The notes under the pieces: generated by a model
The model's input: the letters and a program-made list of their open reading frames with translations, nothing else
The model's database searches: none
Told to the model about the DNA's origin: nothing
In this document: positions 17,527 to 57,261 of the stretch, in pieces
Position numbering within the stretch: the first letter of the stretch is position 1
Layout: each line of letters begins with the position of its first letter
NCBI GenBank assembly: GCA_018110785.1
Contig: JAGBHD010000012.1
Coordinates: 390 to 64,389, forward strand
Length of the DNA: 64,000 bases
Origin: Oscillospiraceae bacterium
GTDB lineage: Bacteria > Bacillota > Clostridia > Oscillospirales > JAGBHD01
Direction: 5' to 3'
Translations under genes and position numbers: made by a program

Positions 17527-17730
17527 CCGAAAGAGGCTTCTCTGACAAAGAGAGGAGTCTCTTTTCTTGCTAAAGACTATCTAAATGGAGCAGAATCGAG
17601 GCAAAAGTAAGTAAAAGCACACCATTTCAGTTAAACTGTAAACTCTGTTGACAGTTTTTTAAACTTTAATTCAGCCATATTAGCACCGCTTTTTTGATTA
17701 AATTATATCATAATTAACGGAATAATTAAA

Positions 17731-17901
17731 ATGAAATATCTTTCGGATGTGAAATAATGACCTACGGTCATTGTGAAATATTGCTCCTTCGCCGCAATGT
17801 GAAATGAAATTTGCCAACATTCGCGTTAGCGAATATTTCACATTTACGAAGTAAATATTTCCAGCAAAGCTATTTCACTTGCCCTTCAGGGCAAATTTCG
17901 T
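17731..17901. repeat. Array A: GTGAAAT cores (forward, then inverted) punctuating variable mini-hairpins
   Basis: GTGAAAT at 17749, 17773, 17799 (ATGAAAT at 17731). ATTTCAC at 17835, 17872 (ATTTCC 17857, ATTTCG 17895). Hairpins at 17756-17772, 17780-17798, 17819-17834, 17842-17856, 17879-17894. Confidence 0.7.
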
Positions 17902-17908
17902 TGAAAAT

Positions 17909-17947
17909 AAAAAGGCTTTTGTCGTCTGACAAAAGCCTTTTTATTTT
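17909..17947. terminator. Bidirectional intrinsic terminator (13-bp stem)
   Basis: AAAGGCTTTTGTC-GTCT-GACAAAAGCCTTT flanked by A and T runs. Lies between the convergent flippase gene and the tRNA genes. Confidence 0.85.
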
Positions 17948-28408: not shown

Positions 28409-29521
28409 ATGGACAAGCATTTATTTATCTGCCCTTGTATGTTTGGGCTGGAAAGCGTTTTAGCGGGAGAGATTAAAAGACTCGGCGGAGAAGATGTCGT
28501 TACGACTGACGGAAAGGTTAGTTTCAGCGGAAATACAGATATGATAGCCCGCGCAAATATAAATCTTAGGACTGCTGAAAGAGTGCTTTTAGTTTTAGGC
28601 TCTTTTACCGCCACTTCTTTTACGGAGCTTTTTGATAAAACAAAGGCTCTCCCTTGGGAGAGGTATATCGGAAGGGATAATAATTTCCCCGTTAAAGGCT
28701 ATTCCCTTAATTCCAAGCTTTTCAGCATTCCCGATTGCCAGAAGATAATAAAAAAAGCGGTGGTTAGCCGCCTTTCAGAAAAATACCGCATTTCCTGGTT
28801 TGAGGAAACAGGGCCTTTGATGCAAATTCAGTTTTCTATTTTTAAGGATACTGCTACCTTAATGATAGACACATCGGGATATGCGCTTCATAAAAGAGGT
28901 TATCGCAAGACATCTAACGCGGCGCCGATAAAAGAAACCTTGGCGGCAGGAATTATAGACTTCGCGCGAGTTCGCTCCGGCGGCAGTATTTACGACCCTT
29001 TCTGCGGAAGCGGTACTTTTCTTATTGAATCGGCTCTAAGGGCTACAAACACCGCTCCGGGCCTTATGCGCCCATTTCAGGCGATGCGGTGGAATTGGAT
29101 CGACCGAAAAGTTTGGTATAATGCCAAAGATGAGGCGAGAGATAAGATAAATCCTAACCCCGATCTTATTTGCTACGGCAGTGATATTGACCCTGAGGCT
29201 ATAAATCTGACGATGGAAAATGCCCGCGCGGCGGGAGTAGAAAAATATATCAAGGCTGAGGTTCTTGATATAAAGGATTTTAAGCCCAAAACAGAGAATG
29301 GTATTATTTTCGCAAATCCCCCTTACGGTGAACGCCTTTTGGATATAAGACAAGCCGAGAGAATTTATAAAACAATGGGAAAGGTTTTCCCGAAAGACGG
29401 ATTTTCCAAATATATCGTTTCGGCTAGTGAAGATTTTGAAGACTTTTATGGTTTAAAAGCAAATAAAAACCGGAAACTTTTCAATGGCTCTCTTCGCTGC
29501 AGAGTTTATATGTATTATTAG
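28409..29521 (+). CDS. THUMP-domain class I SAM-dependent RNA methyltransferase (RlmL/YpsC-like)
   Basis: THUMP N-terminus, DPFCGSGTFLIE, ANPPYGERL. Confidence 0.85.
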   Translation: MDKHLFICPCMFGLESVLAGEIKRLGGEDVVTTDGKVSFSGNTDMIARANINLRTAERVLLVLGSFTATSFTELFDKTKALPWERYIGRDNNFPVKGYSLNSKLFSIPDCQKIIKKAVVSRLSEKYRISWFEETGPLMQIQFSIFKDTATLMIDTSGYALHKRGYRKTSNAAPIKETLAAGIIDFARVRSGGSIYDPFCGSGTFLIESALRATNTAPGLMRPFQAMRWNWIDRKVWYNAKDEARDKINPNPDLICYGSDIDPEAINLTMENARAAGVEKYIKAEVLDIKDFKPKTENGIIFANPPYGERLLDIRQAERIYKTMGKVFPKDGFSKYIVSASEDFEDFYGLKANKNRKLFNGSLRCRVYMYY

Positions 29522-29692
29522 AAATTTGCAATGAATTGCAACCTTGCGGCAGCATGAATTGAAAGCTGATGCTTTCGTGAATCGCCTGCGGCATGAATTG
29601 TGCCTTTGGCACATTAGTTGCATTTCAATTAATGGAGCGAAGCGAGAAATTATGGCATAGCCAATTCATGATGCGACAGCATCAATTCATCT
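29521..29692. repeat. Array B: ATGAATTG cores (forward, then inverted) punctuating variable mini-hairpins
   Basis: ATGAATTG at 29531, 29554, 29593 (GTGAATCG 29577). CAATTCAT at 29662, 29683 (CAATTAAT 29626). Hairpins at 29561-29576, 29599-29613, 29653-29663, 29669-29684. Confidence 0.7.
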
Positions 29693-29704
29693 ATAAAAAT
29701 GAAC

Positions 29705-29745
29705 AGAGCAAGAATAAAGGGGCTTTCCCCTTTTATTCTTGCTCT
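29705..29745. terminator. Bidirectional intrinsic terminator (18-bp stem)
   Basis: AGAGCAAGAATAAAGGGG-CTTT-CCCCTTTTATTCTTGCTCT between convergent genes. Confidence 0.85.
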
Positions 29746-29829
29746 TTCTGTTTGTTATCTGCTCACATTTTGGCTGAGCTGTAAATTTTCCGCTATGAAA
29801 CTCAACCTAAACTCGCGAAGCTTTTACTT

Positions 29830-31161
29830 TTAGAATCTGCGGCGGTGTCTTACCGTTTTATATTTGCGCCGATTTAACTGACGAACTCTTGCATAAACGA
29901 TAAGTCCGATAAGTCCTAAGACGATTAAGACTACTACACCTATAAACCAAGGAGAGGTTAAAATCTGACCTACTATATCGAATGCCTTCATTGTAGGCGC
30001 GGCAGAAAGATCGCTTCCTGCTACAAGGTTTACCGTTGCAAGTTCTTCATTAGCAAGTTTTAGGGTTATTGTTCCGACGATATCGCCTTTTTTAACGGGA
30101 GCTTTAATGCTTTCGGGAAGATTTTTAATAAGCTGAATACTATCTGCGCTTACTCCCTCGGGCAATAAGAACGAGAAATCCTTTTCGGGATATAAAAGGA
30201 CATAGTCCTTATTCTGAGAAAGGGTTACCTTTACTTCGGCTATAGAGGTTTCCGCCTTTAAAATATTTGTAACCTTTAACTCATCGAAAGCCCAGTTATA
30301 TAAATACTGATGGTCAACAAAGTTTCTATATGTACCGTCGACTGCTTCAAGAGGAGCTTCGAGGGTTACTATAATATAGGAAAAATCATTTTTTTCGGCA
30401 GTTGAAACGAGGTTTCTTCCTGTTTTTCCGCTGGCGCTCGCTTTAGCAGTTGTAGCATATTTATAATAATATGTACCGCCGTTATAATTATCTATAAGAA
30501 CGCTTCCTGTTGATAAAATTCTCTCTGTTCCGTTAACTGCGTTTGCCGCGATAGTATATCTTAGAGAAGAAAACATTTCTTCAAAACCAGAGAGCGTTAA
30601 AGCATGGCGATAGATTTTGAAAAGGTCCTCAGCCGTTGTATAGTCTTCATCGGACAAGGCTCCGTGAGGTGTTGTAAAATGAGTATTACTGCAACCAAGC
30701 TCAGCTGCTTTATTATTCATCATCTCGACAAATGCGGGAATACTTCCCTTTCCTACATAATCGGCAATAATATTAGCCGCCTCGCAGGAAGACTGGATTA
30801 CCATAGCATATAAAAGGTCCTTAACCGTTACCGTTTCACCCATTCTTATATCGGCTGTAGGCAGACCTTGGAGATACAGCTCATCATATATATAAGCAGG
30901 CGCTGTTACAGGCTCTTCCCACCCTGTAACATTTTCAGCGGCAACTATCGCCGTCATAATCTGGGCAAGATAGGCAGGATCCTTTTTCTCTGCGGCATTT
31001 TTAGAATATACCATTGACTCTGATGTAAGGCTATACATATAAACAGCCTCACTCGTAGGCTCTGTTGACGGAGTATAGGTATAGGCAGAGGCAAAAACAG
31101 AGCTGCAGAAGATGAACGCAAACAAAAGGCAAATTATTTTTTTCATCTTTTTCATAGACAT
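29830..31161 (-). CDS. S11 (PBP5/DacB-like) D-Ala-D-Ala carboxypeptidase homologue, active-site motifs degenerate
   Basis: Signal peptide, S11-like core with KTG box (SGKTGR), PBP5_C-like region, C-terminal TM plus basic tail. The SxxK position reads AYLAQ and the SxN position reads SSC. Confidence 0.8.
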   Translation of the reverse strand: MSMKKMKKIICLLFAFIFCSSVFASAYTYTPSTEPTSEAVYMYSLTSESMVYSKNAAEKKDPAYLAQIMTAIVAAENVTGWEEPVTAPAYIYDELYLQGLPTADIRMGETVTVKDLLYAMVIQSSCEAANIIADYVGKGSIPAFVEMMNNKAAELGCSNTHFTTPHGALSDEDYTTAEDLFKIYRHALTLSGFEEMFSSLRYTIAANAVNGTERILSTGSVLIDNYNGGTYYYKYATTAKASASGKTGRNLVSTAEKNDFSYIIVTLEAPLEAVDGTYRNFVDHQYLYNWAFDELKVTNILKAETSIAEVKVTLSQNKDYVLLYPEKDFSFLLPEGVSADSIQLIKNLPESIKAPVKKGDIVGTITLKLANEELATVNLVAGSDLSAAPTMKAFDIVGQILTSPWFIGVVVLIVLGLIGLIVYARVRQLNRRKYKTVRHRRRF

Positions 31162-57060: not shown

Positions 57061-57121
57061 AATAAAAACCTCCCCTCCGCTTTTATCAGCAGAAGAAAGG
57101 ATATATTTCCTTTGAACGGCT

Positions 57122-57219
57122 GAAGCGGGATGCGACCACTGCACCGCAGGGTTTCCCCTTTCGCCCGAACGACAACTCCCCGTTCATTCGATACTTAACG
57201 CGCACTTGGTCTACTCTTC
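57122..57219 (-). promoter_or_regulatory. THF (tetrahydrofolate) riboswitch
   Basis: Minus strand reads GAAGAGUAGACC..GCGCGUUAAGU..GAAUGAACGGGGAGUUGUCGUUC..GGGCGAAAGG..CUGCGGUGCAGUGGUCGCAUCCCGCUUC. This matches the conserved blocks AGUAG, GCGUUAAGU, GAAUGGGAUGUCGUC, GCGGUG, GCAUCCGCUC as I remember the E. siraeum aptamer. Confidence 0.85.
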
Positions 57220-57261
57220 AAATAATTTTTATCGGAAGGGCTTTAAAAACCCTTCCGATTT

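Follow-up and report, generated by a model that had tools for sequence, protein, structure and literature searches.

Array B of an Oscillospiraceae genome, probably a recently acquired, gene-less copy of a dispersed box-and-hairpin repeat related to Gut-1

The DNA analysed here, 64,000 nt of the genome of an Oscillospiraceae bacterium (assembly GCA_018110785.1, contig JAGBHD010000012.1, positions 390 to 64,389; the window, below, is this whole stretch, numbered from its first letter), holds in one of its intergenic spacers a 162-nt array of short boxes alternating with mini-hairpins, here called array B. Array B is probably a gene-less and recently acquired copy of a dispersed modular intergenic repeat found in gut Clostridia, the B-type repeat, which is a sister of the Rfam family Gut-1. 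In each half-array, four to five copies of an 8-nt box alternate with short perfect hairpins of free sequence. The B-type repeat would be built of such half-arrays, with one forward and one inverted half standing here beside a repeated terminator module; its complete members would be the stretch directly before a small PF05635 (23S_rRNA_IVP) gene, usually one that is translationally coupled to a variable downstream gene. The product of such genes, a protein like those of 23S rRNA intervening sequences (IVSs) and like Avd, is called IVP below. Membership of the family, the link to IVP genes, the recent acquisition and the structural conservation of the hairpins are established here. Promoters and terminators were assigned throughout as consensus matches, and counts across related genomes are not independent.

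Array B belongs to a dispersed repeat family

The reverse strand of positions 29529-29690 aligns over 162 nt, at 81-83% identity, with two gene-less copies on other contigs of the same genome (C63:224-385 and C5:2435-2594), and the hairpins of the three copies are homologous. A fourth copy in this genome stands directly in front of one of its two PF05635 genes, on contig C16. In G003, a genome of another taxonomic family, 13 matches to array B reach 73-88% identity, whereas the RlmL-like gene that precedes array B is only 69% identical in DNA to that of the same-genus genome G001. The limits of the array follow from homology: BLAST matches from C63 and C5 of the own genome (G000), from G003 and from G037 cover query positions 630-791, which are 29529-29690, and the local alignment to C63:224-385 spans exactly the same interval. 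The sequence-only reading had argued that this was not a simple duplicated repeat; with copies at 81-83% and up to 88% identity that share homologous hairpins, array B is instead a member of a dispersed family. Its parts are as follows.

29529 to 29690, plus strand: array B proper, 162 nt, first box ATGAATTG, last box CAATTCAT, delimited by homology to other B-type copies
29531 to 29613, plus strand: forward half (F), four boxes, each followed by a mini-hairpin
29531, 29554 and 29593, plus strand: forward boxes ATGAATTG, with the variant GTGAATCG at 29577
29538 to 29553, 29561 to 29576, 29584 to 29592 and 29599 to 29613: hairpins h1 (decayed), h2, h3 and h4 of the F half
29614 to 29625, no strand: central linker TTAGTTGCATTT between the halves
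29626 to 29690, plus strand: inverted half (R), with homologous R halves in G003 and in the IVP leaders L081 and L082
29662 and 29683: inverted boxes CAATTCAT, with the variant CAATTAAT at 29626
29647: a further degenerate inverted box, GAAATTAT, which reads GAATTCAT in relatives
29634 to 29646: conserved R-half segment GGAGCGAAGCGAG, which contains GCGAAGC
29654 to 29664 and 29669 to 29684: hairpins of the R half
29705 to 29745, no strand: terminator module T, an 18-bp stem AGAGCAAGAATAAAGGGG / CCCTTTTATTCTTGCTCT from the terminator scan, predicted to be bidirectional
29746 to 29829, no strand: 84-nt tail between T and the stop codon of the convergent gene, which has no counterpart in the short spacers of relatives

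The box and hairpin positions first described for array B match the sequence, as do the interval hairpins GAAAGC-TGAT-GCTTTC, TGTGCC-TTT-GGCACA, TGGC-ATA-GCCA and TGATGC-GACA-GCATCA, and the strong terminator expected soon after the array is the 18-bp stem at 29705-29745, at a gap of 14 nt where about 12 had been given. Altogether there are four forward and four inverted boxes, 16-36 nt apart, so that array B has the inverted arms of a PF05635 cassette (described below). Three of the eight boxes are degenerate, one of these being canonical in the same-species contig L042, and the first interval, h1 (GCAACCTTGCGGCAGC), is a decayed hairpin whose counterpart in G351 reads GCAACCTTGCGGTTGC. Enrichment over randomised sequence, the lack of which had been named as a refuting result, was found: a scan for at least three identical 7-mers in direct order at 14-45-nt spacing, with at least two reverse complements within 220 nt, returned 10 loci in the real 1.4-Mb genome and 1, 0, 0, 0, 0, 0, 0, 0, 0 and 0 in ten simulated Markov genomes of the same dinucleotide make-up.

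The family extends across the order. B-type units, defined as ATGAATTG-N8-18-ATGAATTG, occur in 47 of 401 genomes of the order, in 28 of 177 genera and 14 of 30 families, at 1-85 per genome, against a single match for the reversed-pattern control, and their intervals are nearly always perfect hairpins that differ in sequence. The halves behave as separate modules in G003, where F-R, R-F, F alone and R alone all occur. One locus of that genome (L033, G003:C25:5715-6218) has two inverted F halves bracketing a terminator module, a promoter-like stretch and a 71-codon open reading frame (ORF; MKNLSAIEIKCQSV...), and resembles a small composite element with half-arrays as ends. Duplication can take in neighbouring sequence: C63:148-401 and C5:2356-2610 are 95.6% identical, and what they share takes in, ahead of the array, a terminator and a linker of 31 nt. 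The plan of clustered regularly interspaced short palindromic repeats (CRISPR), namely 23-55-nt direct repeats with unique spacers of similar size and cas genes, was not found at array B, which has 8-nt boxes, half of them inverted, and palindromes of 8-18 nt; the Rfam CRISPR-DR match there is noise (15.8 bits against a cut-off of 35).

The array was recently gained in the spacer between two convergent genes

As the sequence-only reading had it, the setting of array B is convergent, with the following genes on either side.

28409 to 29521, plus strand: upstream gene, THUMP/RlmL-like class I S-adenosylmethionine (SAM) RNA methyltransferase (Pfam PF22020, PF02926 and PF01170; ORF list)
29830 to 31161, minus strand: convergent gene, PBP5-type D-alanyl-D-alanine carboxypeptidase (Pfam PF00768 and PF07943)

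The two stop codons are 308 nt apart in the window, and the block of repeat homology starts 7 nt after that of the RlmL-like gene. Two metagenome contigs, L071 and L072, have the gene order of the window (Fumerase, RlmL-like, PBP5-like on the minus strand, Metallophos) and encode RlmL-like proteins with 86% and 83% amino acid identity to that of the window, but their stop-to-stop spacers measure 32 and 39 nt and each consist of a compact bidirectional terminator with its own sequence. In G001, too, a terminator comes right after the stop codon of the RlmL-like gene. Orthologous arrays, the absence of which had been named as a refuting result, were thus not found at this spacer in syntenic relatives, which have the 32-39-nt terminator only, and a conserved locus-specific function of array B is not supported. 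Within the species the array is present: contig L042 carries it with 303 of the 308 spacer bases identical, and two further contigs from the same samples as L042 end inside it. Of its 162 nt, 2 differ within the species, compared with 0.15-0.9% in the flanking genes, the differences being few. Array B also shows wear, with h1 broken and three of eight boxes degenerate.

A single gain in the lineage of this species is the most economical reading. Because relatives with the same gene order hold only a 32-39-nt terminator, the array appears to have come together with a repeated terminator module; the gained block would comprise the array, T and the 84-nt tail, and would have replaced the ancestral bidirectional terminator of 32-39 nt. 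The tail has no relatives in five genomes. No target-site duplication was seen at array B, where the whole spacer differs from those of L071 and L072 and the junctions are uninformative.

Hairpins are conserved as structures and boxes as sequence

An alignment of ten F halves, taken from three genomes, has pairing in 94.2% of its cells, and in 7 of its 24 pairs both partners have changed, a level of covariation reached by 0 of 500 shuffles, while slid controls pair at 28-49%. The boxes stay constant across copies as the hairpin sequences drift, which implies that the boxes carry sequence information and the hairpins shape only. The stems of 61 distinct B units contain just one pair that is not Watson-Crick, an A.C. 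In 893 pairs of IVP-linked arrays, read on the sense strand of the gene, G.T and A.C pairs are equally frequent (7 each), so that these counts give no asymmetry by which an RNA strand could be chosen; neither strand has an excess of wobble pairs, in contrast to structured RNAs of the typical kind.

The loops are polar, reading TTC, TTT or TTAC on the box-sense strand and GAA, GTA, GCA, GAAA or GTAA on the other. This polarity relative to the boxes is the same in both halves, making the element symmetric in the manner of transposon ends. C-GAA-G loops reportedly lie at the heart of d(GCGAAGC), a very stable mini-hairpin of DNA (Hirao, Yoshizawa and colleagues, 1990s), and GNA loops are known as stable triloops in DNA. 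Taken together, the stem and loop statistics suggest that the hairpins form in DNA. As a single strand the halves can, in predicted folds, zip box to box: the array B region folds at -52 kcal/mol with long-range F.R pairing, against -41.7 kcal/mol with local hairpins only and -37.8 ± 4.2 kcal/mol for shuffles.

Arrays keep company with a repeated terminator module

T is of a terminator type, GCAAGAA...TTCTTGC, that is repeated and found with arrays in other genomes; the window terminator (GCAAGAATAAAGGGG...) is a 78% match to G003:C31:46258-46314. G003 has 12 such hairpins (GCAAGAACG...CGTTCTTGC) against 0 in the control, and for at least 7 of the 12 an array, of one of several box types, is adjacent or no more than about 250 nt away. 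The GCAAGAACG..CGTTCTTGC hairpin is itself dispersed, occurring at the 3' end of many unrelated genes in G003, and the same spacer can have different terminators in related species (L071 and L072). It seems that this group exchanges its terminators as modules. In the own genome 12 of 18 arrays abut a terminator-like hairpin, and these terminators are whole. A systematic association with convergent-gene terminators had been proposed for a genome-wide check; what emerged is a link to terminator modules and not to convergent pairs as such. Insertion into a terminator loop was considered for array B and rejected, as the flanks of the 308-nt spacer form no split-hairpin arms and T is intact beside the array.

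Complete family members precede PF05635 genes

The own genome has two PF05635 genes, on contigs C16 and C40, and both come directly after an array. On C16, four ATGAATTG and five CAATTCAT/AAATCATG boxes precede the gene, the array ending 18 nt before the ATG; on C40 the array is of the AGTTATAT/ATATCACT type. We examined 22 IVP loci in six genomes (these two and 20 in five relatives), and at least 15 of the 22 are built likewise, each with its own box, the box types including GTGATG, GTGAAG, ATGAAATC, ATGAAATA, GATGATAT and TCGATATA. The usual order is a tRNA gene or gene end, a terminator, a forward half, an inverted half, a TGnTATAAT promoter, a ribosome-binding site (RBS) and the IVP gene; at one locus the gene lies between the two halves. 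B-clade IVPs (59-100% identity to the C16 protein) are encoded in 11 of the 401 genomes, all among the 47 with B units, and each of the 11 genes has a B unit within about 0.5 kb.

At L081 and L082 a TTGAAA-17-TATAAT promoter stands upstream of the array, so that the array there is predicted to be a transcribed IVP leader. Read on the plus strand, array B is colinear with these two leaders, including GGAGCGAAGCGAG, with a terminator in the place of the gene. Because there is no PF05635 gene at 29400-29900, where only the terminator and the PBP5-like gene accompany it, array B is an orphan arm set of the PF05635 cassette type.

Several IVP genes are joined to what follows. The protein has the conserved C-terminus ...TAKEN, encoded ACC GCA AAG GAG AAT and containing the Shine-Dalgarno site AAGGAG, and the IVP stop codon and the start codon of the next gene overlap as ATGA, that gene being variable and encoding a lipoprotein, a GNAT protein or a protein of unknown type. 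This TAKEN/ATGA coupling was seen at L046, L048, L052, L056, L060, L062 and L064 (G003, G008 and G037), and the IVP gene would thus, on its sequence, be a portable promoter-plus-translation-start module for whatever follows. The IVP protein matches PDB 2RLD (E = 1e-27, five chains), and the S23p protein of Xanthomonas is a homopentameric toroid (PMC4990558).

Further observations concern the C16 locus and its counterparts. G000:C16:10378-10975 is a complete B-type copy in which an RBS and a PF05635 gene for 117 aa come after the boxes. The last codons of a rumA-type methyltransferase gene there (...HVESVVCLKR) form the 5' arm of a 19-bp hairpin before the array; the gene end, hairpin and array recur in G037:C34, with a fragment in G037:C29, and a third rumA-type end precedes an array of the TCGATATA type in G033:C73. 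Array B likewise follows an rRNA methyltransferase-like gene, which may be coincidence. Just after its last box, 29699-29722 (ATGAACAGAGCAAGAATAAA) faintly resembles the start of the B-clade IVP genes (ATGAAAGAAAATAAA, MKENK) and sits at the same distance from the array as the IVP start does; it could be a deleted-gene remnant or AT-rich chance, and its ATG reads ATA in a same-species contig. A large CRISPR-association screen names, in a figure legend, "23S rRNA IVP" among proteins with a new association to CRISPR features (PMC10910872). One possible reason for that association is that box-and-hairpin arrays beside these genes might be taken for CRISPR-like repeat arrays.

Array B is a sister of Gut-1

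Gut-1 (RF01706) is represented in the window by another array, array A.

17729 to 17903, no strand: array A, two convergent Gut-1 matches (Rfam), adjoining a terminator at 17907-17945 and two tRNA genes

The array A matches, at 17729-17810 (plus strand) and 17830-17903 (minus strand), score 50.1 and 54.1 bits, above the Gut-1 gathering score of 50 bits. The best match in array B, at 29552-29624 (plus strand), scores 21.5 bits (E = 0.058, in a 321-nt search), and because this is below the cut-off array B is not a Gut-1 member. It has the Gut-1 plan of four boxes and three variable co-varying hairpins; the Gut-1 box consensus GUGAAAU is not its box (ATGAATTG), the TGAA core alone being common to both. 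Array B is clearly a sister of Gut-1 that falls outside Gut-1 by Rfam's rule. Beyond this weak match, Rfam searches of 29480-29800 at permissive thresholds returned only noise (microRNA models and plastid models of the 3' untranslated region (UTR), on the terminator).

That arrays A and B form one structural class, as first proposed, is borne out by their common box-hairpin-box plan with different boxes, and the suggested co-variation of cores is seen across more than 10 box types, in which forward and inverted cores change as reverse complements. The own genome (1.40 Mb, 63 contigs) has 19 Gut-1 matches, mostly in convergent pairs. Several lie within 100-250 nt of contig ends, and this placement is the behaviour of a dispersed, assembly-breaking repeat. 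Read on the minus strand, the array A region (17701-17945) has the parts of a full cassette in their order but for the gene: tRNA genes come first, then terminator 17945-17907 and the two Gut-1 halves, and last the extended -10 motif TGATATAAT at 17710-17702, beyond which there is no PF05635 gene in the approximately 150 nt up to the terminator of the neighbouring gene. Elsewhere in the window, 57121-57220 (minus strand) is a tetrahydrofolate (THF) riboswitch (RF01831, 78.3 bits).

Discussion

Because array B lies between the stop codon of the RlmL-like gene and the first terminator, with no promoter in front, it is predicted to be part of the 3' UTR of the RlmL-like mRNA. At this locus it is most probably a passenger without a dedicated regulatory role, and would have at most generic effects on 3'-end stability or termination, like those of repeats in enterobacteria (see below). 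For the family as a whole, the boxes may be the part that is recognised by sequence and the hairpins spacers that fold out. A cognate IVP pentamer is a candidate reader of the boxes because of its constant adjacency, the clade-specific boxes and the match between four to five boxes per half and five subunits, and we put it forward tentatively. Equally tentative, and argued by analogy with the rRNA IVS stems that RNase III cuts, is a reading by forward-inverted pairing into a long rod.

Several observations weigh against parts of this account. An obligatory protein partner is unlikely, as 36 of the 47 genomes with B units, for example G003 with 24 units, are without a B-clade IVP; arrays can thus persist in a genome that does not encode the protein. 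For the majority of the other box types a promoter lies between the array and the IVP gene, and the C63 and C5 arrays lie beyond a terminator; as the placement of promoters and terminators varies in this way, transcription of the array is not a constant feature, which argues against an obligatory RNA role. The DNA-like stems argue in the same direction, the lack of G.U pairs and the d(GCGAAGC)-type loops pointing to DNA hairpins over RNA. The short spacers of the relatives could in principle be deletions, at the price of three independent losses against one gain. Finally, neither a target-site duplication nor a cognate transposase was seen that would account for the spread of copies.

Among alternatives, the one that survives best is that B-type arrays are classical miniature inverted-repeat transposable elements (MITEs), their subterminal boxes being sites for a transposase encoded elsewhere, as at the ends of Mu or Tn7. 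The inverted termini ATGAATTG...CAATTCAT, the patchy distribution, in bursts that reach 85 units in a genome, the differing presence among relatives and the symmetric loop polarity of the two halves would all fit. We nevertheless consider it unlikely because no target-site duplication is visible (the junctions at array B being lost), no copy has a linked transposase, solo halves and the R-F order occur, and duplicated blocks take in the neighbouring terminator and do not end at the boxes. The genome encodes a single Y1 transposase, of the ordinary IS200 type, at a distance from the arrays.

It is less likely still that array B is an independent small structured RNA gene ending at the terminator 29705-29745, which is the type that Rfam gives Gut-1 ("Gene; sRNA", for small RNA). 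Co-varying hairpins, the strong terminator that follows, a fold more stable than shuffles and the weak match to the Gut-1 model are what such a gene would show; however, there is no plus-strand promoter and the block begins 7 nt after a stop codon, the halves, one per orientation, occur in both orders and alone, a G.U excess is absent on either strand, the family is multi-copy and breaks assemblies, and syntenic relatives are without the array.

We give very little credence to a locus-specific array of cis-regulatory protein sites by which termination or expression of the two convergent genes, RlmL-like and PBP5-like, would be controlled, although the array sits exactly between the two, adjoins their common terminator and has boxes at 16-36-nt spacing. 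Relatives with the same genes and neighbours have the 32-39-nt terminator alone, the same sequence is found at unrelated loci here and in other families, and one hairpin and three boxes have decayed.

Nor is the pattern of array B chance: a random cluster of an AT-rich 8-mer in low-complexity intergenic DNA has practically no probability left, since, although the window-wide total of exact ATGAATTG/CAATTCAT 8-mers (5, with 3.8 expected) is not above expectation, all five lie within 160 nt (29531-29690), the architecture scan finds 10 real loci against about 0.1 per simulated genome, units occur order-wide in 47 genomes against one control match, and homologous copies carry compensatory changes.

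Going beyond the gene-less repeat copy that array B probably is, a broader proposal, which we regard as speculative and somewhat less likely than either of the two ways of reading the boxes, is that box-and-hairpin arrays (Gut-1, B-type and at least 10 other box types) are the nucleic-acid partners of pentameric PF05635/Avd-like proteins and travel as insertable cassettes. Every clade of these proteins would recognise a 7-9-nt box of its own, displayed four to five times between extruded mini-hairpins. If this were true, gut Clostridia would have a widespread and previously undescribed cassette class (terminator, arrays, promoter, IVP, coupled cargo gene), a protein-gene counterpart of the rRNA IVSs, and array B, like other orphan arrays, would be a scattered footprint or a decoy of that class.

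Gut-1 has stood in Rfam since 2010 as an orphan "sRNA" from gut metagenomes only, and is here one box type within a much larger modular repeat class, whose members come and go, along with terminator modules, among closely related genomes and whose complete forms lie directly before 23S-rRNA-IVS/Avd-like genes. Protein clade and box type make a concrete, testable pairing. For annotation, matches like Gut-1 need not be RNA genes, the arrays break short-read assemblies, and labelling them as the regulatory region of the preceding gene risks error.

Comparison with known systems

The REP, BIME and REPIN repeats of Proteobacteria (repetitive extragenic palindromes, bacterial interspersed mosaic elements and REP doublets), which are associated with REP-associated tyrosine transposases (RAYTs), resemble the B-type repeat in being short, multi-copy intergenic palindromes, mostly at gene 3' ends near terminators, with pairs in opposite orientation and mosaics with linker modules; for both, stabilisation of mRNA 3' ends and termination are likely generic effects. 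The hairpin sequence is conserved in REP, whereas in the B-type repeat the reverse holds, the boxes being fixed and the hairpins free: conserved palindromes of the REP kind were not found, since B-type hairpins vary between units and genomes. The linked gene also differs, encoding a four-helix-bundle protein and not an HUH nuclease, and no RAYT is linked. A RAYT/IS200 link was tried and rejected, because the single Y1_Tnp gene of the genome is IS200-type, with end hairpins of its own and no box arrays beside it. The only reverse transcriptase (RT) gene of the genome is on another contig.

G000:C30:66887-67243: Y1 (IS200-type) transposase, 158 aa, at the contig end about 2.5 kb past the end of the window

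The pneumococcal BOX element (boxA-(boxB)n-boxC) is, like the B-type repeat, a modular, expandable, hairpin-rich and non-coding intergenic repeat of Firmicutes, often near gene ends. Its modules are conserved blocks of 45-59 nt, not known to be related in sequence to the B-type repeat.

Closer is Gut-1 (RF01706; Weinberg et al. 2010, PMC2864571), which has, like array B, about four boxes of 7-8 nt with an (R)TGAA core and three or four variable co-varying hairpins between them. Both are from gut Clostridia and present in the same genome. Rfam's Gut-1 models one half as an sRNA, unlike array B, a two-half mosaic with a terminator module. The two-half mosaic, the terminator module, the PF05635 link and the DNA-like stem statistics do not figure in the accessible part of the published Gut-1 description. 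In the open literature searched we found no functional study of Gut-1 RNA or of PF05635/rRNA intervening sequence protein, and no paper linking Gut-1-like arrays to PF05635 genes.

The ORF-bearing 23S rRNA IVSs of Coxiella burnetii and Leptospira (Warrier et al. 2016, PMC4990558) have, like the B-type repeat, a PF05635 gene beside short tandem repeats. In C. burnetii tandem GACAGAT heptamers lie just upstream of the S23p ORF, inside a stem cut by RNase III (PMC4990558). The inverted arms of such IVSs form the RNase III-cut stem, of which the predicted F.R pairing would be the B-type counterpart. These IVSs are regarded as selfish elements or as formerly mobile ones, some of them decaying or without the gene. 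They reside in rRNA helices, whereas B-type arrays lie between protein or tRNA genes, have a hairpin after every box and usually keep both arms on one side of the gene; array B, unlike an ORF-bearing IVS, has no gene at all. The ORF-bearing 23S rRNA IVS is the closest described biology to array B, and Gut-1 is the closest catalogued item.

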